This document shows positions 5,907 through 52,159 of a DNA stretch of 64,000 bases, in pieces. How positions within the stretch are numbered: the first letter of the stretch is position 1; each line of letters begins with the position of its first letter. A program made the translations under genes and the position numbers. Below the pieces are notes generated by a model that was given only the letters and a program-made list of their open reading frames with translations, had not been told where the DNA came from and did not search any database. Source of the DNA: Nitrospinia bacterium (GTDB lineage: Bacteria > Nitrospinota > Nitrospinia > Nitrospinales > JAJDAT01); assembly GCA_029261715.1 (NCBI GenBank), contig JAJDAT010000035.1, positions 351 to 64,350 on the forward strand, in the 5' to 3' direction.

Positions 5907-5933
5907 TAAAGTTGGTTCACTTTCTGCCGATAA
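5907..5933 (+). promoter_or_regulatory. Sigma-28 (FliA) promoter, consensus match
   Basis: TAAAGTTG (5907-5914), an 11-nt spacer, and GCCGATAA (5926-5933). It lies about 80 nt upstream of ATG 6012. Confidence 0.7.
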
Positions 5934-6011: not shown

Positions 6012-6440
6012 ATGGCAGAAGTTTCTGGCGGAATTTCAAACAGCATTCCAGTATCTAGAGGGATTGAAGCTCTAAAACGGCAAGAGAATTTAGCTGGGGC
6101 AGGATCTCCAGGACCCTCTTCTGAGCGTAAGCTCTTAGATTCTCAGGATAGTGCAGATCGAGTGCAAATTGGCGTTGAAGCTCGCCAATTAAATGATGAT
6201 CGACAGAGAAACCAAGATCTTCAAGAATCTCAGCGTGAAGGTCAACGCATAGCGGAAAATCAACAGGAACAAACCGCTCAGACTCAAGCCGTATCAAACC
6301 CTGTTGCATTGCCAGAGCAAAACCTGAGCCCATTTCGATCTGAACCTTCCCCAAATCGAGTGACTGAAAAATTTAAACAGTCCGAGTCTAGCCAAAATAG
6401 CAGTTCTCAAAAGGGACTCAATATCGACGTCCAAATTTAA
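6012..6440 (+). CDS. Q/E/S/N-rich disordered protein of the predicted sigma-28 regulon (weak FlgM-like motif)
   Basis: 142 aa of low complexity. DRVQIGVEARQL resembles the D[KR][IV].[IL]S..A..[LM] motif of FlgM anti-sigma-28 factors, but the usual C-terminal helix pattern is not evident. A consensus FliA promoter lies upstream. Confidence 0.5.
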   Translation: MAEVSGGISNSIPVSRGIEALKRQENLAGAGSPGPSSERKLLDSQDSADRVQIGVEARQLNDDRQRNQDLQESQREGQRIAENQQEQTAQTQAVSNPVALPEQNLSPFRSEPSPNRVTEKFKQSESSQNSSSQKGLNIDVQI

Positions 6441-44385: not shown

Positions 44386-44562
44386 TCAAATCAAGATTCG
44401 GACAGACTACACCTCGCTTACCCCGGACAAGGGTCGTAACGAGATTTTTGCGTTTTTAAAAAAATCTTCAGGCGGGGGGGGGTGAGCCTTTCCCGCAAAC
44501 GCTCTGAAATCAACAAATTTATAATTTATTTTATACATTAATGACCTCGGATTTTAAGTATT

Positions 44563-45423
44563 TTAAATTTGGTTGTCTAAAAGTTGAAGTACAGATTGAG
44601 GATTCAAATTAGCTTGTCCTATCATAGCTGTAGATGCCTGTACTTGAATTTGATTTTTAGTCAAATTAGCAAAACTTTCTCCGAGGTCGGCGTCAGACAA
44701 GATAGAGTCAGCTCTGGTGTTTTCTTCAACAGAACGATCTAAATTCGATACTGTGCTCGCTAATCTTTCGGCGGCTACAGAGACTCGACTTCTAGTTTCA
44801 ATAACATCATCTAGCAAAATTTCAATCGCTTCGCCAGCGGCAAGCGCTGATTCTTGAGTATTGACAGAAAGTTGATCAAGGCCTGTAGCGGCAGATCTCA
44901 AGTCAGTGACATCTAATATATCGTTGAGGTTGAACCTGTTAGAAGCGCCTCCGTCTAATCCAGTTTGGATGATGTAAGGATCGCTAGCTCCCCTTGATAA
45001 GGAACCGTCTAACAATTTTTGTCCATTGAATTCTGTCGTGTTTGCTATTCGATCCAATTCTTCTCTGAGTTGATTGAATTCCAACTGAACGCTTTCTCGT
45101 TGGGTGTCGTTGATAGTTCCGGATGCCGATTGTTGCGATAACTCTCGAAGTCGAATCAAAATGGAAGAAACTTCTCCAATTGAGCCTTCTACGGTATTTA
45201 CTAGGGCGATGGCATCGCTAGTATTTCTTGAAGCTTGGCGTAAAACAAGGTTGTCGGATCGTAGCGTTTGAGAGATAGAAAAGGACGCGGAATCGTCGCC
45301 AGCTTGTTGGAACCTTTGTCCTGAAGCAACTTGCTTGATAGAATTTTCTAGCCTATCATTATTTGCTGTTAGGTTTCTTTGCGCGTTTTGAGAAACGAGA
45401 TTGGTAAAAATCTGTAATGCCAT
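44563..45423 (-). CDS. fliC: Flagellin, divergent paralogue (286 aa)
   Basis: MALQIFTNLVSQNAQRNL... N-terminus and ...QANLNPQSVLQLL C-terminus. No sigma-28 motif in the 103-nt gap to the upstream flagellin. Confidence 0.9.
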   Translation of the reverse strand: MALQIFTNLVSQNAQRNLTANNDRLENSIKQVASGQRFQQAGDDSASFSISQTLRSDNLVLRQASRNTSDAIALVNTVEGSIGEVSSILIRLRELSQQSASGTINDTQRESVQLEFNQLREELDRIANTTEFNGQKLLDGSLSRGASDPYIIQTGLDGGASNRFNLNDILDVTDLRSAATGLDQLSVNTQESALAAGEAIEILLDDVIETRSRVSVAAERLASTVSNLDRSVEENTRADSILSDADLGESFANLTKNQIQVQASTAMIGQANLNPQSVLQLLDNQI

Positions 45424-45465
45424 TTCAATTTTCCTCCGTGAAAAGTGATTTTGTCATACTGTTAT

Positions 45466-45479
45466 TAGCTTCCTTGCTA
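45466..45479 (-). promoter_or_regulatory. Leader hairpin with AAGGAA loop (CsrA-type site candidate)
   Basis: On the mRNA it reads UAGC-AAGGAA-GCUA. It lies about 30 nt upstream of the SD CGGAGGA (45432-45438). Confidence 0.4.
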
Positions 45480-45526
45480 AAACAATGGCAATTTCAATAA
45501 ATATTTTATTCAGTTTTATTCTAGAA

Positions 45527-46384
45527 TTACTGTAGTAATTGCAATACTGACTGCGGAATCAAGTTGGCCTGTCCTACCATAGCGGTAGAAGACTGAACCA
45601 AGATTTGGTTTCGAGTTAACAAAGCGACTTCTTCTGCGATATCTGCATCTCGAATAGCTGATTCTGCAGATGTTAGGTTCTCAATAGAAATCGATATGTT
45701 GGATATTGCTCTTACTAGCCGGTTTTGCACGGCGCCGACTTTACCACGGCCCTGCGTAACGACTGTTATTGCGGAATTCATTACATCCAAAGCTGTCAAC
45801 GCGGCGTCGGAGGCAGTAACGCTTAAAACGTCTACTCCTAAACCTGATGAAGTAATTGAACCAAGGTCGATTTGTTGGTTTAAATTAATTCGACTGTCTG
45901 CTGAGGAATCAATTCCGATTTGGATCAATATATGTTGATTGGATGAAATCGAAGATGAAAGCGATCCATCAATCAAACGTTGACCATTAAAGGAAGTCGT
46001 TTGCGCAATACGATCAATCTCGTTTCTTAACGCGGTGAATTCTAATTGGATAGTTTGACGTTCGGTAGAACCAACAGTTCCGGTAGCAGCTTGGGAAGCT
46101 AGCTCTCTCAATCTGATGAGAATCCCGGCTTGTTCGTTGAGCGCTCCTTCCGTTACGTTAATGAGCGCGATTCCGTCGTTTCCGTTTCGAACAGCTTGCC
46201 TTAGAGCTCGGATATCGGATCGTAATGATTCCGAAATTGCCAACCCTGCGGCGTCATCTGCTCCCCGGTTTACCCGGATTCCGGAAGCGATTCTTTCAAC
46301 TGAAGAAGCTAACCGGTCGTTGTTGATCCCCAAAATACGCTGAGCGTTCAGCGAGGGGATATTGTTAAAAATTCTTACTGGCAT
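45527..46384 (-). CDS. fliC: Flagellin (285 aa)
   Basis: MPVRIFNNIPSLNAQR...GADDAAGLAISE... and ...QANLIPQSVLQLLQ. Confidence 0.95.
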   Translation of the reverse strand: MPVRIFNNIPSLNAQRILGINNDRLASSVERIASGIRVNRGADDAAGLAISESLRSDIRALRQAVRNGNDGIALINVTEGALNEQAGILIRLRELASQAATGTVGSTERQTIQLEFTALRNEIDRIAQTTSFNGQRLIDGSLSSSISSNQHILIQIGIDSSADSRINLNQQIDLGSITSSGLGVDVLSVTASDAALTALDVMNSAITVVTQGRGKVGAVQNRLVRAISNISISIENLTSAESAIRDADIAEEVALLTRNQILVQSSTAMVGQANLIPQSVLQLLQ

Positions 46385-46422
46385 TTTAAAAATCCTCCGT
46401 GATTTTTAATTGTTTTAATTTC

Positions 46423-46434
46423 GGCATCCTTGCC
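46423..46434 (-). promoter_or_regulatory. Leader hairpin GGCA-AGGA-UGCC (CsrA-type site candidate)
   Basis: The mRNA reads ...UUGGCAAGGAUGCC..., close to the CsrA consensus CAAGGAUG. It is nested in a TGTTTT/AAAACA outer stem (46411-40). The SD is CGGAGGA (46393-46399). Confidence 0.45.
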
Positions 46435-46554
46435 AAAACAGTAAAAAAAAAGCTTTAATTCGATGTTACGTTTTAGTCATGCTTGTTTCCTTTATATATA
46501 GAAATTAAGTAGTTAAATTCCGAATATGATAGGTATAAGTGCGTCATAGATTTC

Positions 46555-46582
46555 ATAACGGATTTTGCATTAAAATACTTTA
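46555..46582 (-). promoter_or_regulatory. Sigma-28-like promoter (weaker): TAAAGTAT-N12-TCCGTTAT
   Basis: Reverse complement of 46555-46582. It sits 171 nt upstream of the ATG, the same distance as the strong motif before flagellin 48960-49817. Confidence 0.45.
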
Positions 46583-46680
46583 TGGTTTTTTTCGCAGGGG
46601 CAAACGACCCTGCTTAAAGGGGGAGAAAAAGAAGTGGCGAGAAACTGGCTTTTGAGGTTTTGGGAAGTGTAGAATCGAAA

Positions 46681-46730
46681 CCAGCCGCCGGGTTTGACCT
46701 TATTTGAAAGGCTTTGTCAAACCCGGCTGG
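46681..46730 (-). terminator. Long GC-rich hairpin downstream of flagellin 46860-47717
   Basis: CCAG(CCG)CCGGGTTTGAC ... GTCAAACCCGGCTGG forms a 15-bp stem with a 3-nt bulge. Both flanks are T-rich. Confidence 0.4.
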
Positions 46731-46809
46731 CTTTTATTAGGAATCGATCATTGCCAGCTGTTTCCTTTAATTTAGGAAACTCATACGCTTGAAAATAATT
46801 TCAAGTTTA

Positions 46810-46843
46810 AGGAAGAATAATAAAAAACTTTATTATTCTTCCT
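46810..46843 (-). terminator. Perfect 15-bp A/T-rich hairpin 17 nt after the flagellin stop
   Basis: AGGAAGAATAATAAA-aaac-TTTATTATTCTTCCT. Confidence 0.35.
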
Positions 46844-46859
46844 AAGCTTGTTTTTGAAA

Positions 46860-47717
46860 TTATCCTAAGAGCTGTAATACTGATTGCGGGATTAAATTCG
46901 CCTGACCAACCATTGCCGTAGAAGCCTGTACCAGAATTTGGTTTCTGGTGAGTAACGCAACTTCTTCAGCGATGTCGGCGTCTCGGATAGCAGATTCCGC
47001 AGCTTGTAAGTTCTCAGTACTAACCGATATATTCGCGATTGCTCTTACGAGCCGGTTTTGTACGGCACCCACCTTACCACGGCCCTGGGTAACAACCGTT
47101 AAAGCAGCGTTGATCGAGTCGAGAGCGGTCAGCGCTCCTGCGGCTGATGTAACGCTTAGCGTGTCGATGCCAAGAGAAGATACTGTTACGGCGGTCAAAT
47201 CTATTTGTTGATTCAGGTTGATTCGACTATCAGCAGATGAATCCAATCCAATTTGGATCAGAATTTGATTGCTGGATGTTACGGTAGAAGATAGTGAACC
47301 GTCAATCAATCGCTGTCCGTTAAACTCAGTGGTGTTTGCGATACGGTCAATTTCGTTTGAAAGCGCCGTGAATTCGATTTGAATTGTTTGACGTTCTGTG
47401 GATCCAACAGTACCGGTAGAAGCTTGAGAAGAAAGTTCTCTTAGCCGAATCAAAATACCGGCTTGCTCATTCAAGGCTCCCTCCGTAACGTTGATCAATG
47501 CAATTCCGTCATTTCCGTTTCTAACAGCTTGTCTTAAGGCTCGAATGTCAGAACGTAATGATTCCGAAATAGCTAGACCAGCGGCGTCGTCGGCGCCTCT
47601 ATTGATTCTAATACCGGATGCAATTCTTTCTACTGATTGGGCGAGTCTATCGTTGTTGTTACCCAAGATTCTCTGGGCATTAAGCGAGGGAATGTTATTA
47701 AAGATTCGAACTGGCAT
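46860..47717 (-). CDS. fliC: Flagellin (285 aa)
   Basis: Canonical flagellin N- and C-termini. The first 72 aa are identical to those of the 48960-49817 copy. Confidence 0.95.
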   Translation of the reverse strand: MPVRIFNNIPSLNAQRILGNNNDRLAQSVERIASGIRINRGADDAAGLAISESLRSDIRALRQAVRNGNDGIALINVTEGALNEQAGILIRLRELSSQASTGTVGSTERQTIQIEFTALSNEIDRIANTTEFNGQRLIDGSLSSTVTSSNQILIQIGLDSSADSRINLNQQIDLTAVTVSSLGIDTLSVTSAAGALTALDSINAALTVVTQGRGKVGAVQNRLVRAIANISVSTENLQAAESAIRDADIAEEVALLTRNQILVQASTAMVGQANLIPQSVLQLLG

Positions 47718-47750
47718 GGTGATTCCTCCTTGAGTCGTGAATAACTAATG

Positions 47751-47778
47751 CTTGTTTTAACCTCCTTGCTAAAACAAG
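47751..47778 (-). promoter_or_regulatory. Leader hairpin with GCAAGGAGGU loop (CsrA-type site candidate)
   Basis: 9-bp stem CTTGTTTTA/TAAAACAAG with loop GCAAGGAGGU on the mRNA. A second CAAGGAGGA forms the SD (47724-47732). Confidence 0.5.
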
Positions 47779-47976
47779 TAACCAGGATGCTTCAAATGTA
47801 AAACTACAAATTTTTTTCTAGATAATTCTCCAAGAATTTCTTCGCCAACCAGGAAAAGGCGAAAAAAAATTGTTTTTTAGATCAAAAATCTTAAATTATT
47901 CAGTAATTTTTGCGCCAACCAGGTAAGGAGCTCAAATTACTTTCTAAATTAAAAGACTTTTTGCGTCTTGGAAGCT

Positions 47977-48003
47977 ATATCGGAATTTGGAGAATTTACT
48001 TTA
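47977..48003 (-). promoter_or_regulatory. Sigma-28 promoter: TAAAGTAA-N11-TCCGATAT
   Basis: Reverse complement of 47977-48003; about 260 nt upstream of flagellin ATG 47717. Confidence 0.65.
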
Positions 48004-48112
48004 GCGAGAAGAAAGAGTAGGGGGAGTTCTCCCCTGGGCGGAGCGGATAAAAAAACGTGGAAAACGTTAAAAATAAAGAATTTTACGCTAGATTAAATTT
48101 AATAAAAAAAAA

Positions 48113-48871
48113 TTATAAGATTGATGAATCAGATCCAAATTTAAGCAATTGGACGACTTCTTTTCGAGCTTGCAATGATATATCGAGTTTAGAATCTTGT
48201 CTATTTTGCATCAAATTCTTCCAATAGATTTGTGTCCAAAGGAATTTATCGCTTATAGGACTTAAATTTGCTCGAAATTGCTTTAAAACGTTAGTTTCTT
48301 CGGAAATCTCCTCAATTATTTTGGAAGTTGGACTGAAACTGCTGAAAATGAATCGAGAAAAATTTCTTCCACAATAGCGTTCTGCTAATAATGGATTCAG
48401 AGATAATCCAGCTTTTATATATGATTCTTTTAAATCGCCTATTATGTTTGGCGGTAAAACTACCTCAAGAGACGTTTTATCGAAAATAAACTTTTCTTTT
48501 TCAACTAAAAGGCTAGAGTTAACATCCGTTTGCCTTATCAGTCTTTGGATAGCATTTTGTAAGTGAAGCTTATCTGTTTCATCCATATTAGGGGTTTTAT
48601 GAATGAGTAAAAGTTGACCGAGCAATTGAAGGCGCTTTGATTGTTTAGATAAAATTGCCTCACATTCTTTAATTTCTCTTAGATAGATCTGAGTCGAGCA
48701 TAATTTTTGATCTATAGAAAGATCTTTTATATCCGTTTTCTCGTTTTGCAATTCGCGAAACAAGTTCCCCATCGTTTTGGAGCGAGCGTTGGCGCTCGCT
48801 CTTTGTTTCTTTTCCGGAGAAAAGGGTCTTATAGAACGATCTTCGATTTTTATATGTAATGTTTTACCCAT
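48113..48871 (-). CDS. Unknown protein embedded in the flagellin array; possible highly diverged flagellin-derived protein (252 aa)
   Basis: Intact ORF with balanced composition, 88 nt downstream of a flagellin gene. By-eye collinear matches to the flagellin D1 helix (TDKLHLQNAIQRLIRQTD vs TERQTIQLEFDSLRTEID) and to the C-terminal ..VVQLL. It lacks the flagellin N-terminus. Confidence 0.55.
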   Translation of the reverse strand: MGKTLHIKIEDRSIRPFSPEKKQRASANARSKTMGNLFRELQNEKTDIKDLSIDQKLCSTQIYLREIKECEAILSKQSKRLQLLGQLLLIHKTPNMDETDKLHLQNAIQRLIRQTDVNSSLLVEKEKFIFDKTSLEVVLPPNIIGDLKESYIKAGLSLNPLLAERYCGRNFSRFIFSSFSPTSKIIEEISEETNVLKQFRANLSPISDKFLWTQIYWKNLMQNRQDSKLDISLQARKEVVQLLKFGSDSSIL

Positions 48872-48959
48872 ACCTAGTCCGCCCTTTTTAGGAAATAATT
48901 TCCAACAAAAGTTATTCTGCTTCCACTGAGGATAAATTTCCTCAATGGAATTGAATAAA

Positions 48960-49817
48960 TTATCCCAATAATTGCAAAACAGACTGTGGTATTAAGTTTG
49001 CCTGTCCAACCATAGAAGTAGAGGCCGCAACTAGAATTTGGTTTCGCGTTAGCAAAGCGACTTCTTCAGCAATATCGGCGTCTCTAATCGATGATTCGGC
49101 GGCTTGTAAATTTTCGGTTGAAACCGAAAGGTTTGAAATCGCGCGAACTAAACGGTTTTGTACGGCGCCGACTTTTCCTCGGGCTTGGGTTACGGCGGTG
49201 ATAGCGGAGCTTATTGAATCCAAAGCGGTTAAAGCTCCAGCGGCTGATGTTACGCTTAACGACTCTACGCCAAGTCCGGATGTTGTTACCGCAGATAGAT
49301 CAATTTGTTGATTTAAATTAATTCGACTATCTGTGCTGGAATCCAATCCAATTTGAACCAAAATGTGATTTGTGGAAGTAACCGTTGACGCCAAAGATCC
49401 ATCGATTAATTTAGTTCCGTTGAACTCTGTTGTGTTGGCAATACGATCAATTTCGGTTCGTAGGGAATCGAACTCTAATTGAATGGTTTGCCGTTCTGTC
49501 GAGCCGACAGTACCTGTAGATGCTTGCGACGATAGTTCCCTTAAGCGAATAAGAATAGACGCTTGTTCGTTTAGCGCTCCTTCGGCGACATTAATTAAAG
49601 AAATTCCATCGTTACCATTTCGTACGGCTTGACGAAGAGCTCGAATGTCAGAACGTAATGATTCTGAAATTGCTAGTCCAGCGGCGTCGTCTGCGCCTCT
49701 ATTAATTCTAATACCAGAAGCTATTCTTTCAACCGATTGTGCTAACCGGTCGTTGTTGTTTCCCAAGATTCTTTGAGCGTTCAAAGATGGGATGTTGTTG
49801 AAGATTCGAACAGGCAT
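48960..49817 (-). CDS. fliC: Flagellin (285 aa)
   Basis: Canonical flagellin N- and C-termini. Confidence 0.95.
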   Translation of the reverse strand: MPVRIFNNIPSLNAQRILGNNNDRLAQSVERIASGIRINRGADDAAGLAISESLRSDIRALRQAVRNGNDGISLINVAEGALNEQASILIRLRELSSQASTGTVGSTERQTIQLEFDSLRTEIDRIANTTEFNGTKLIDGSLASTVTSTNHILVQIGLDSSTDSRINLNQQIDLSAVTTSGLGVESLSVTSAAGALTALDSISSAITAVTQARGKVGAVQNRLVRAISNLSVSTENLQAAESSIRDADIAEEVALLTRNQILVAASTSMVGQANLIPQSVLQLLG

Positions 49818-49851
49818 GACTTTTTCCTCCTCCTAAGGATGTTTTTGTTCG

Positions 49852-49872
49852 CGATGATTGTCCTTATCATCG
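49852..49872 (-). promoter_or_regulatory. Leader hairpin with AAGGACA loop (CsrA-type site candidate)
   Basis: 7-bp stem CGATGAT/ATCATCG with loop AAGGACA on the mRNA. The SD is AGGAGGAGG (49826-49834). Confidence 0.5.
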
Positions 49873-49987
49873 ATTTTTTAGCGCGCTTAAAAAAAACACT
49901 AATGGAATTTAATTTAAATTCCGTAAAGCCAGATAAGCGTTAATTATGACCGCCTTGCTACTTTGGACGGTGATGCGCTCAACAAGG

Positions 49988-50014
49988 TTATCGGAGGAAT
50001 AGTTGATAACTTTA
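49988..50014 (-). promoter_or_regulatory. Sigma-28 promoter, consensus: TAAAGTTA-N11-TCCGATAA
   Basis: Reverse complement of 49988-50014; 171 nt upstream of flagellin ATG 49817. Confidence 0.8.
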
Positions 50015-50192
50015 GTTTGGAAAGTTTTTTGAAAAGGAAGATGAGTCTAGTTTTTCTTCTGGGTTGGTTTTAGAAAGCCAATAAAAATTATTTGAGGTAG
50101 CTCTAAAGAGCTTTGTTTGAGGGAACTTCGAAGATTGGCTAAGAACTATTCTGAAAAATATTTAGAGTTAAAAAAACGGAAAATATTTTTAA

Positions 50193-50231
50193 TTTTTTTT
50201 TGGAGCGGGGGTGAACCCGCTCCAAAAAAAA
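50193..50231. repeat. 39-nt near-perfect palindrome T9-GGAGCGGG-ggtgaa-CCCGCTCC-A8
   Basis: Read directly from the sequence, immediately after the stop of flagellin 50239-51096. On both strands the T-tract precedes the stem and the A-tract follows it. Confidence 0.7.
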
Positions 50232-50238
50232 GTTCGAA

Positions 50239-51096
50239 TTAGCCCAATAATTGTAAAACCGACTGCGGAAGTAGGTTAGCTTGACCCGCAACTGCGGTAG
50301 AAGAAGCAACCAAGATTTGGTTTCGCGTCAAATTTGCCACTTCTTCAGCAATATCAGCATCCCGGATAGCAGATTCTGCGGCTTGTAAATTTTCCGTTGT
50401 GGTGGCTAAGTTGTTAATAGCTCTTACCAACCTGTTTTGTACCGCACCCACCTTACCCCGAGCCTGAGTAACTAAAGATATAGCCGAGTTTACAGAGTCT
50501 AATGCGGTCAAAGCTCCTGCCGCCGACGTAACGGAGAGAGATTCAATGCTTAAACTGGTTGAAGAAATTGCTTGTAGGCCAATTGTAGTGTTGAAATTGA
50601 TTCGACTGTTACTCGATGCATCCAATCCTATTTGAACAATAAGTTGAGAATCCGTTGTTACTGTCGAAGCAAGCGATCCATCTAAAAGCCGGGTTCCGTT
50701 AAACTCGGATGTGTTTGAGATTCTATCGATTTCGTTTCTTAGTGAATCGAATTCAATTTGAATCGTTTGTCTTTCCGTGGAACCAACCGTTCCGGTTGAA
50801 GCTTGAGACGCCAATTCTCTTAAACGAATAAGAATGGAAGATTGCTCGTTTAAGGAACCCTCTGTCGTATTTAAAAGAGAAATACCGTCATTCGCATTTC
50901 TACTAGCTTGTCGTAACGCTCGGACATCAGATCTTAATGATTCTGAAATAGCCAATCCAGCGGCATCATCCGCGGCCCGATTGATTCTAACCCCAGATGC
51001 GATTCTCTCGATGGACTGTGCTAGACGATCATTGTTGTTACCCAAAATTCTTTGCGCGTTTAATGAGGGGATGTTGTTATTAATTCGGACCGGCAT
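50239..51096 (-). CDS. fliC: Flagellin (285 aa)
   Basis: MPVRINNNIPSLNAQR... and ...QANLLPQSVLQLLG. Confidence 0.95.
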   Translation of the reverse strand: MPVRINNNIPSLNAQRILGNNNDRLAQSIERIASGVRINRAADDAAGLAISESLRSDVRALRQASRNANDGISLLNTTEGSLNEQSSILIRLRELASQASTGTVGSTERQTIQIEFDSLRNEIDRISNTSEFNGTRLLDGSLASTVTTDSQLIVQIGLDASSNSRINFNTTIGLQAISSTSLSIESLSVTSAAGALTALDSVNSAISLVTQARGKVGAVQNRLVRAINNLATTTENLQAAESAIRDADIAEEVANLTRNQILVASSTAVAGQANLLPQSVLQLLG

Positions 51097-51176
51097 GGTT
51101 TCCTCCGCCTAATAGTTAGATGGTTTAATTATTTAAAAAGACCAGGTTTTATTAAAAAAAAGCCTAATGGCTATTA

Positions 51177-51650
51177 TCAAATTTTCCGATAAAGCAGATA
51201 GGGGGTAAATACTCCAAAGTTTTGGAGAAATAAAATAAACCCTTCCACTTCGGTATTTCGGCAAAAAAACGTAAACTCTAAATAAGTTTTTCTGAAAAAA
51301 AGCGCTTTTTTATAACTAGAAGCGATTTTTTCTTTAATTTGTAAAAAAACGCTTGAGACTATTGTCATAAAAGCCGTTATGAACGATGAGGGATACTGTG
51401 CTTTATAGATCCAGCGAAACCCAAAAAGCTTCTCCTCAACGGGAATATCGGAAGAAATATCAAGTACTTTAAGATTAAATTTTTGAAGCGAGTTTTTGGT
51501 ATCTATTGAAATTAACTTTAAGAAATTAAACAAAAATTCCGTTAAGACCGATGCCCCAAGCTGTATTTTTCCTTTATAATTCAAAAAGCTAAAGGAAGCC
51601 TTATCGGGTTTTTCGGATAAAAAATTAAAATGTATTAGTTTAATTTTCAT
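51177..51650 (-). CDS. Unknown F/K/L-rich protein (157 aa) between a sigma-28 promoter and a flagellin gene
   Basis: A 157-codon open frame is improbable by chance in such AT-rich sequence. However, there is no convincing SD, the composition is skewed and no family is recognised. Confidence 0.4.
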   Translation of the reverse strand: MKIKLIHFNFLSEKPDKASFSFLNYKGKIQLGASVLTEFLFNFLKLISIDTKNSLQKFNLKVLDISSDIPVEEKLFGFRWIYKAQYPSSFITAFMTIVSSVFLQIKEKIASSYKKALFFRKTYLEFTFFCRNTEVEGFILFLQNFGVFTPYLLYRKI

Positions 51651-51777
51651 TTTTTAAATATTTCTTGGATTTTTGATTTAAAAGCTTCAAGGTACTTTAT
51701 TTATTTTCCGTTAAGTTCGATGAACCAAAGACCTTTCTTTCGTAAATTTTATTAAGCCGAAATATGTCCTATCCTGG

Positions 51778-51804
51778 TTATCGGAAAAAAAGTTAATAAC
51801 TTTA
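51778..51804 (-). promoter_or_regulatory. Sigma-28 promoter, consensus: TAAAGTTA-N11-TCCGATAA
   Basis: Reverse complement of 51778-51804; 128 nt upstream of the ORF 51177-51650 ATG and 682 nt upstream of flagellin ATG 51096. Confidence 0.65.
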
Positions 51805-52106
51805 GTTTCGAAGTTCTTTTTTTTCAAAATTTAAAAAAAACCTTTCTATAAAGGAACTCAGGTTTTTTTCCGATAAACTCGATGAGGTGTTATAGAATCT
51901 TTTTTCAAACATTAAAGTTCTATGAAGCCATATCTTATTTTTCGGGAAAAATCTTGAGGGCTTTAGAAAAAAATTCATCTTTAATGAATCCTAAAAATAA
52001 CTTTTTAAATTTCGCTTATATAAATAAGGTAAAATCCCGTAAAAAGAGATAAGCAGCCTATGGCCTTCCGAATGGAAAATGTTGGCTGCAATTAACCTTA
52101 ACTTTG

Positions 52107-52133
52107 TTATCGGGAAAAATAATTAGAACTTTA
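52107..52133 (-). promoter_or_regulatory. Orphan sigma-28-like motif: TAAAGTTC-N11-CCCGATAA
   Basis: Reverse complement of 52107-52133. No credible ORF lies within the next 300 nt on the minus strand. Confidence 0.5.
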
Positions 52134-52159
52134 GCCCGTTTGCAAAAAAGGCAATAAAA

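Follow-up and report, generated by a model that had tools for sequence, protein, structure and literature searches.

How are five flagellin genes that lie in a row, away from any other recognisable flagellar gene, expressed, and are all of them still in use? We asked this of a 64-kb stretch of a Nitrospinia bacterium contig (JAJDAT010000035.1; hereafter the window), in which the flagellin cluster occupies positions 44563-51096 on the minus strand. Comparison with related genomes leads us to a picture that we regard as likely. The cluster would be a flagellar filament locus of the Nitrospinota, the ocean's main nitrite oxidisers, whose five flagellin genes are transcribed by sigma-28 and whose translation is held back by CsrA until FliW relieves the repression.

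Five flagellin genes under purifying selection

The cluster holds five intact open reading frames (ORFs) of 285-286 amino acids (aa), which we name F1-F5 (Table 1). A sequence-only reading of the window had described five same-strand genes with canonical flagellin termini, and domain searches agree: each protein matches, over its full length, Pfam Flagellin_N (PF00669; E 6e-35 to 9e-43; 120.7-146.1 bits against a gathering cut-off of 26.6) and Flagellin_C (PF00700; E 6e-14 to 2e-24; 52.6-85.9 bits, cut-off 23). The division into four close paralogues and a divergent fifth also holds, with pairwise amino-acid identities of 73-89% among F1-F4 (only 68-74% at the nucleotide level) and 47-50% between F5 and the others. 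The differences among F1-F4 are concentrated at residues 141-200, where identity is 47-82% as opposed to 81-94% in the N-terminal part. In a search with F3, the closest solved relatives were Bacillus subtilis Hag, with structures 5wjt and 6gow among the best PDB matches (E 1e-57), and minimal flagellins of 270-286 aa, which aligned end to end. Because their lengths match those of these solved proteins, we take F1-F5 to be flagellins with a D0/D1 core only.

All five genes are alive and under purifying selection. Among orthologues in four genomes, F1-F4 have a ratio of nonsynonymous to synonymous substitution rates (dN/dS) of 0.01-0.05 and F5 one of 0.06-0.17; the synonymous divergences are 0.4-1.5. 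A comparison of the paralogues finds their synonymous sites saturated and no exact match longer than 26 nucleotides (nt), which indicates that the duplications are old. Recent gene conversion among the paralogues was considered and rejected, given the shortness of this longest match. F1-F4 are probably the major filament subunits, and F5, which evolves faster, is probably a minor or specialised one.

A set of paralogues might also be redundant or decaying, with the filament built of one flagellin only. This is a general possibility, and the fragmentation in one relative (L003) of ORFX, the gene between F2 and F3, shows that parts of the locus can decay. Each of the five flagellins, however, has an orthologue in four other genomes at the low dN/dS (0.01-0.17) and considerable synonymous divergence just given, all frames are intact, and each gene keeps its own conserved promoter or leader, so that redundancy strikes us as very improbable. 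The filament genes are no relics: the strong purifying selection on five paralogues, together with the conservation of their promoters and leaders, argues for a working, regulated flagellum with several flagellins.

The arrangement is shared by related genomes. A scan of one genome per species found relatives of F3 at 96-98% identity in uncultured Nitrospinota/Nitrospinales metagenome-assembled genomes and at 74-86% across Nitrospinaceae. Synteny comparison, which the sequence-only reading had proposed, yielded about 55 Nitrospinota loci that keep both position and flanks: hisF, then ldcA in opposite orientation, followed by between one and six flagellins and by an oxidoreductase with an ATP-binding cassette (ABC) transporter. 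The order F1, F2, ORFX, F3, F4, F5 recurs identically in loci L060, L001, L002 and L073. In the window itself the flanks are, by Pfam and as reported before, a Gfo/Idh/MocA oxidoreductase and an LD-carboxypeptidase (ldcA), and no other flagellar gene was recognised within the 64 kb; the remaining genes are nuo, his, arg, dxs, dnaN and the like. Since some 55 loci share this neighbourhood, the separation from other flagellar genes is an old and stable feature of the family. The regular modular arrangement had been called unusual, a view that these loci do not support: judged by them, several flagellin genes in this setting are the conserved norm of the family, and the locus resembles known multi-flagellin loci.

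Sigma-28-type boxes and transcription units

Sigma-28 motifs had been placed upstream of three genes, at 46555, 47977 and 49988, and they lie where they were reported, in front of F4, F3 and F2 respectively. Six matches to TAAAGTNN-N10-12-CCGATA lie in the 64-kb window, compared with 0.02 expected from shuffled sequences. Against a TAAA-N15-GCCGATAA-type box the match is exact for F2, F3 and, at 375 nt, F1; F4 has the variant CCGTTAT. In the boxes of F2 and F3 the -35 element TAAAGT and the -10 element CCGATA are invariant among four to five close relatives (for F2, in L001, L002, L003 and L060) and the spacers vary, while the variant -10 of F4 (TCCGTTA) is kept in all four relatives. This contrast between fixed elements and changing spacers establishes that the repeated promoter-leader-coding sequence layout noticed earlier is real. 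Although no motility has been seen in Nitrospinota cultures, flagellar and chemotaxis genes belong to the Nitrospinae core genome (PMC5029188), and FlgV, which is co-conserved with sigma-28, is present in Nitrospinota according to the literature. From the boxes we infer that transcription of the locus depends on sigma-28 (FliA), which would start it 130-375 nt upstream of the start codons and so give rise to long leaders.

Two genes have no such box. The 103-nt gap between F4 and F5 and the 88-nt gap between F2 and ORFX contain none, even with two mismatches allowed, which agrees with the original description. Across the Nitrospinota loci the same division separates two classes of flagellin gene. 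An exact box, with a median distance of 213 nt to the ATG, precedes 109 of 125 genes with long gaps and none of the 48 genes with short gaps (under 160 nt; about 50-155 nt in reliably placed genes). Every short-gap gene is of the divergent kind. Clustering at 75% identity or more unites 112 box-preceded flagellins in a single cluster without one short-gap gene, and the short-gap genes are spread over many small clusters. Because the boxes and the sequence clusters divide the genes in the same way, we regard a promoterless divergent gene behind a conserved one as a rule of the family, and F4 and F5 as very probably bicistronic. The F4-F5 gap fits this assignment: apart from the leader hairpin it has no significant fold (z -0.6) and no terminator-like structure, and six genomes differ hardly at all over its 3' 70 nt.

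The sequence-only reading had proposed two bicistrons, each with a divergent flagellin as its second gene. That description suits F4-F5 and fails for the other pair, where the second gene, ORFX, is no flagellin and is separated from F2 by a hairpin. As a whole this gap folds at -25.3 kcal/mol (78 nt, z -5.1). Because the hairpin directly after F2 is similar to those after F1 and F3, co-transcription of F2 and ORFX is doubtful.

A different partition would make the locus six monocistronic units, with F5 and ORFX each served by a promoter of an unrecognised type. The strong hairpin between F2 and ORFX speaks for it, the conserved 70 nt before F5 could conceal a promoter, and minor flagellins elsewhere are driven by sigma-54, as is Campylobacter flaB from its own promoter. 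Sigma-54 promoters for the box-less genes were nevertheless rejected, since the window shows no enrichment of the motif and neither gap has a match. The sigma-70-like hexamers of the F4-F5 gap have no conserved counterpart in L001 and L002, no terminator follows F4, and the association of short gaps with absent boxes holds in 48 of 48 cases across distant lineages whose gap sequences differ. We give six separate units a small chance. The likely units would instead be F1, for which an array of boxes leaves the promoter ambiguous; F2, from which transcription would extend to ORFX only by read-through past the strong hairpin, unless ORFX has an unrecognised promoter; F3 alone; and the F4-F5 bicistron.

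Hairpins lie 3' of F1, F2, F3 and F5 (Table 1), but few canonical intrinsic terminators are present. The G+C-rich hairpin followed by U7 behind F5 is the likely end of the cluster's last transcript. The hairpin behind F1 looks alike on both strands, with no 3' U tract on either.

Outside the flagellin locus the window has a single exact sigma-28 box, TAAAGTTGGTTCACTTTCTGCCGATAA, at 5907-5933 on the plus strand, about 80 nt upstream of a plus-strand ORF (6012-6440) that encodes 142 aa of low complexity with no Pfam or NCBIfam match. We regard this ORF as a candidate for the FliA regulon.

Leaders with GGA-loop hairpins

The most informative feature of the leaders, which the sequence-only reading did not describe, is the combination of GGA-loop hairpins with GGAGGA ribosome-binding sites. 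GGAGGA serves all five flagellin genes of this locus and, family-wide, 142 of 159; the window's 52 other ORFs have none. In minimum-free-energy folds a hairpin with the loop A-N-GGA-N appears 25-45 nt upstream for each of F2-F5, and in the folds of F4 and F5 both GGA motifs lie in hairpin loops. Hairpins of this kind occur in 90 of the 159 family genes; dinucleotide-preserving shuffles give 16 +/- 3.7, and 6 of the 52 other window ORFs have one. The F1 leader has a small hairpin, AGCCAUUAGGCU, followed by U8, roughly 45-65 nt upstream of the ATG.

The stems covary. From the family leaders we took 92 distinct 20-mers anchored on ANGGAN alone, with no selection for structure. At the seven flanking positions, 73.3% of cells are paired, versus 52.5 +/- 1.5% in shuffled sets, and the covariation score of 0.546, versus 0.225, is reached by none of 500 shuffles; in every register slid along the sequence, pairing is at most 47%. 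CsrA sites have as their signature a GGA loop that is conserved on a covarying stem, with a further GGA in the ribosome-binding site. We therefore propose that each cistron is repressed by CsrA and relieved by FliW. CsrA would bind the ANGGA loop of the leader hairpin and the GGA inside GGAGGA and so check translation of each cistron; FliW would lift the repression upon flagellin export, as for B. subtilis hag and Campylobacter flaA. Such control is probable for each cistron. F5 would thereby have a CsrA-type leader of its own, which would explain why the gap before this promoterless gene is conserved.

The same leaders could serve under transcriptional control only, the hairpins and the strong ribosome-binding site being generic elements that stabilise the mRNA of a very highly expressed gene or enhance its translation, with no part for CsrA or FliW. 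In keeping with this, neither csrA nor fliW was found by the searches made, F1 is without the hairpin, and GGAGGA is also just a strong ribosome-binding site. A stabilising stem, though, would not account for an A-N-GGA-N loop that stays conserved while its stems covary, as a loop recognised by a protein would; the pairing of a loop GGA with a ribosome-binding-site GGA is that of the mapped CsrA sites on flaA (PMC4894983), and the absence of GGAGGA from all 52 other ORFs is not what a generic element would predict. Control by transcription only is, in our estimate, unlikely, and CsrA-FliW control of translation is the reading we prefer.

Several observations count against this preferred picture. 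Leader folds show no BS1-type hairpin upstream of F1, and a regular-expression search found no CsrA-like ORF in the window. The window does not contain fliW, and the searches made located neither csrA nor fliW in the phylum; among the best 120 of 8000 matches to a CsrA profile, which came from Bacillus, Campylobacter, enterobacteria and similar sources, none lay on a contig that agreed in length with the Nitrospinota ones. On the transcriptional side, fliA and flgM are absent from the window and were not located in Nitrospinota genomes by the searches made, the -10 of F4 (CCGTTA) deviates from the canonical CGA core, and the 3' hairpins mostly have no canonical U tracts, so that unit ends are not firmly defined. 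Finally, no flagella have ever been seen on Nitrospina in culture (PMC5029188). Our search of the literature on FliW or CsrA in Nitrospinae found nothing specific, and an Rfam scan of the whole window at gathering threshold gave zero matches; a tRNA scan of the window found none.

The F3 leader has a further peculiarity, a repeat of about 70 nt with CCTGGTTGGCG at 47824-47856 and 47894-47926 on the minus strand and a third CCTGGTT that adjoins the GGA hairpin on its 5' side. Relatives differ in how many copies of the repeat they have, and in them this leader measures 262 nt or 183-185 nt. A conserved CCTGGT is also present in the F1 leader, at 51141-51146.

Comparison with known flagellin loci

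In B. subtilis, hag, a SigD-dependent flagellin gene under the partner switch of CsrA and FliW, is a single gene directly downstream of fliW-csrA and beside fliD/fliS. The flagellins described here resemble Hag in size (about 300 aa), in a sigma-28-class promoter and in a predicted two-site CsrA-type leader. They differ in being five, in lying away from other recognisable flagellar genes in 64 kb, and in having leaders two to three times longer, with csrA and fliW not located here. Of the two CsrA sites in the hag leader, the first lies in the loop of a hairpin and the second covers the ribosome-binding site (Yakhnin 2007; Mukherjee 2011; both cited in PMC4894983).

The flaA-flaB locus of Campylobacter jejuni likewise places a major and a minor flagellin in tandem, and the predicted leaders of F4 and F5 fold as that of flaA does. 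Campylobacter flagellins, at about 570 aa, are twice the length of F1-F5. Unlike flaB, the divergent F5 has no promoter box and follows its partner at about 100 nt. The flaA leader forms two stem-loops with ANGGA in each loop, the second over the ribosome-binding site, and shows compensatory changes between species (PMC4894983).

In having several same-strand paralogues under selection, the locus is like those of Caulobacter (fljJKL, fljMNO), Sinorhizobium (flaA-D), Vibrio (flaA-E) and Bdellovibrio (fliC1-6), and a composite filament is the probable product of such loci. Outside the phylum, the flagellins of Bdellovibrionia come closest, at 41-48% identity, and are likewise found in tandem sets of two or three. 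We know of no strict pairing of a promoter-bearing conserved flagellin with a promoterless, fast-evolving one in any of these multi-flagellin loci. The predicted CsrA-type leaders also set the locus apart from that of Caulobacter, where, according to the references given in PMC4894983, FlbT and FlaF rather than CsrA act on the 5' untranslated region.

As predicted here, the locus joins two known things, a multi-flagellin filament locus and a control module of the hag/flaA type, with a sigma-28 promoter and a CsrA-type leader. Only the pairing of conserved with promoterless, fast-evolving flagellins and the array of boxes on both strands might be mildly surprising. The family-wide pairing is a tidy comparative observation rather than a new principle. 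The locus supplies concrete targets for metatranscriptomes, in the form of transcription start sites, leaders and paralogue-specific peptides.

Table 1. Positions of genes, promoter boxes, leader elements and hairpins at the flagellin locus (window coordinates; hairpin loops in square brackets)
Feature	Position	Strand	Remarks
F1 flagellin, 285 aa	50239..51096	minus	Pfam Flagellin_N and Flagellin_C; dN/dS 0.02-0.04 (orthologues, four genomes)
F2 flagellin, 285 aa	48960..49817	minus	Pfam; dN/dS 0.02-0.03
ORFX, 252 aa, between F2 and F3	48113..48871	minus	dN/dS 0.09-0.15; clade-restricted
F3 flagellin, 285 aa	46860..47717	minus	Pfam; dN/dS 0.01-0.05
F4 flagellin, 285 aa	45527..46384	minus	Pfam; dN/dS 0.01-0.05
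F5 divergent flagellin, 286 aa, putative second cistron behind F4	44563..45423	minus	Pfam; dN/dS 0.06-0.17
Nearest exact sigma-28 box to F1	51445..51471	minus	375 nt from ATG; at 368-371 nt in relatives
Degenerate F1-side box, TAGAGTTT-N10-GCCGAAAT	51255-51280	minus	about 185 nt from ATG
F2 sigma-28-type box, TAAAGTTATCAACTATTCCTCCGATAA (TAAAGTTA-N11-TCCGATAA)	49988..50014	minus	197 nt from -35 start to ATG
F3 sigma-28-type box, TAAAGTAAATTCTCCAAATTCCGATAT	47977..48003	minus	286 nt upstream of ATG
F4 sigma-28-type box, TAAAGTATTTTAATGCAAAATCCGTTAT	46555..46582	minus	variant -10 TCCGTTAT; 198 nt upstream of ATG
F1 ribosome-binding site GGAGGA	51101..51106	minus	invariant in four genomes
F2 leader hairpin, CGAUGAU[AAGGACA]AUCAUCG, CsrA BS1-like	49852..49872	minus	ribosome-binding site GGAGGAGGA at 49825-49833
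F3 leader hairpin, CUUGUUUUAGC[AAGGAG]GUUAAAACAAG (...UUUUAGC[AAGGAG]GUUAAAA...)	47751..47778	minus	GGAGGA at 47724-47729
F4 leader hairpin, UUUUGGCA[AGGA]UGCCGAAA	46419..46438	minus	GGAGGA at 46393-46398, within loop of second hairpin
F5 leader hairpin, UGUUUUAGC[AAGGAA]GCUAAUAACA (UUAGC[AAGGAA]GCUAA), in F4-F5 gap	45460..45484	minus	GGAGGA at 45432-45437, within loop of second hairpin
Hairpin 3' of F1	50194..50231	minus	-24.7 kcal/mol, z -5.7; U8 on 5' side, A9 on 3' side
Hairpin 3' of F2, before ORFX	48921..48950	minus	12 base pairs, no adjacent U tract; compensatory changes in L060
Hairpin 3' of F3	46810..46843	minus	15 base pairs, -22.5 kcal/mol
Second, G+C-rich hairpin 3' of F3	~46681-46732	minus	fold
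G+C-rich hairpin then U7, 3' of F5	44455..44502	minus	fold
ldcA-F1 intergenic array	51097..52159	both	six modules of ~165 nt with sigma-28-like boxes
ORF inside array, doubtful gene, 157 codons	51177-51650	minus	open at identical length in all five genomes

The box array between ldcA and F1

The A+T-rich spacer between ldcA and F1 measures 1063 nt and is filled with sigma-28-like boxes on both strands. On the minus strand there are exact boxes at 52133, 51804 and 51471 and degenerate ones at 51965, 51627 and 51280, spaced by about 165 nt. The repeated motif YATC..TTWAYCGGAA is a sigma-28-like box read on the plus strand; boxes of this orientation, pointing toward ldcA, lie at 51165, 51518, 51687 and, as an exact match, at 51849, and an inverted box is also found within the F2 leader. 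With so many boxes, the choice of promoter for F1 is ambiguous. Tandem Repeats Finder reported nothing relevant in the locus, the modules being too diverged for it.

The sequence-only reading had taken the region upstream of F1 for decayed modules. In an alignment of four clade genomes the boxes stand out as conserved islands amid variable spacer, and their positions recur in all five genomes. The array is specific to this clade, with a cytidylyltransferase gene occupying a gap of the same length in 32 other loci. An origin from decayed flagellin or cytidylyltransferase genes was rejected, since permissive tblastn searches gave noise only (all E values above 0.2). Since there is no coding trace and the boxes are conserved as islands, decayed cassettes are the wrong description.

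A more elaborate proposal would make the spacer a functional array of six modules whose boxes, in both orientations, adjust the expression of F1, and perhaps of ldcA, or buffer free FliA or CsrA, and would see in the fast-evolving promoterless flagellins and ORFX lineage-specific modifiers of the filament. We hold this to be improbable. If true, the array may yield short FliA-dependent RNAs or convergent antisense transcripts, or may serve as a sigma-28 decoy.

One ORF inside the array (51177-51650) has the appearance of a gene in its open frame. When the observed substitutions were placed at random, the frame stayed open in only 0.6-2% of trials for each of three more distant relatives. Its dN/dS of 0.5-1.2, its lack of codon-position bias and the absence of a Shine-Dalgarno sequence argue against a gene. 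The conserved islands of its 'peptide' coincide with sigma-28-like boxes, and the Joint Genome Institute (JGI) annotates it as a gene.

ORFX, a clade-restricted gene

ORFX codes for protein, as its dN/dS (0.09-0.15) and an in-frame deletion of three codons in L060 indicate. Only nine homologues were found, at 71-100% identity, and an exhaustive hidden Markov model (HMM) search of 1.84 billion representatives returned only its own cluster and two fragments. Judged by these comparisons, ORFX is a real gene restricted to the clade of the window. It has no Pfam or NCBIfam match, and its AlphaFold2 model is helical and, at a predicted local distance difference test (pLDDT) score of 41, too poor for structural comparison.

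A degenerate flagellin or a flagellin-derived accessory protein was considered and rejected for ORFX. Profile comparison with hhalign gave E 0.8 against flagellins and 0.32 against a family of flagellin-like proteins without D0 segments, described below, and the Pfam, NCBIfam and HMM results point the same way; no test that we ran links ORFX to flagellin. In L003, on a contig otherwise closely related, the gene is split into three ORF fragments (L003:1365-1932), as expected of a dispensable gene or of metagenome assembly errors.

Genes and leaders in sister lineages

In the 32 loci with a cytidylyltransferase gene, as in most Nitrospinota other than the clade of the window (for example L004:6022-6765, L012:7506-8273 and L029:7624-8361), the gap between ldcA and the flagellin genes encodes an enzyme of 245-255 aa of the KdsB/PseF type, which perhaps activates a sugar for flagellin glycosylation.

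Sister lineages also encode a flagellin-like protein of 238-247 aa without both terminal D0 segments (L004:7977-8714, with homologues in L006, L007, L008, L011, L015, L025, L030 and L036). It aligns by hhalign to flagellin residues 52-256 with 99.7% probability and scores 33.5 bits against Pfam Flagellin_N. Its gene lies directly behind the first flagellin and before a divergent one. Such a protein is curious, in that the termini for export and polymerisation are missing.

The leaders of the first flagellin in other lineages (for example L006 upstream of 7321, L004 upstream of 7070) contain a unit of about 50 nt, single or as two in tandem, that forms a GGUGGA...GGA...CCACC hairpin. A highly conserved UUCCAACUCAUGGUGGAGGAUUAGGAAAAUG start region comes after the units, and these leaders resemble those with multiple GGA sites.

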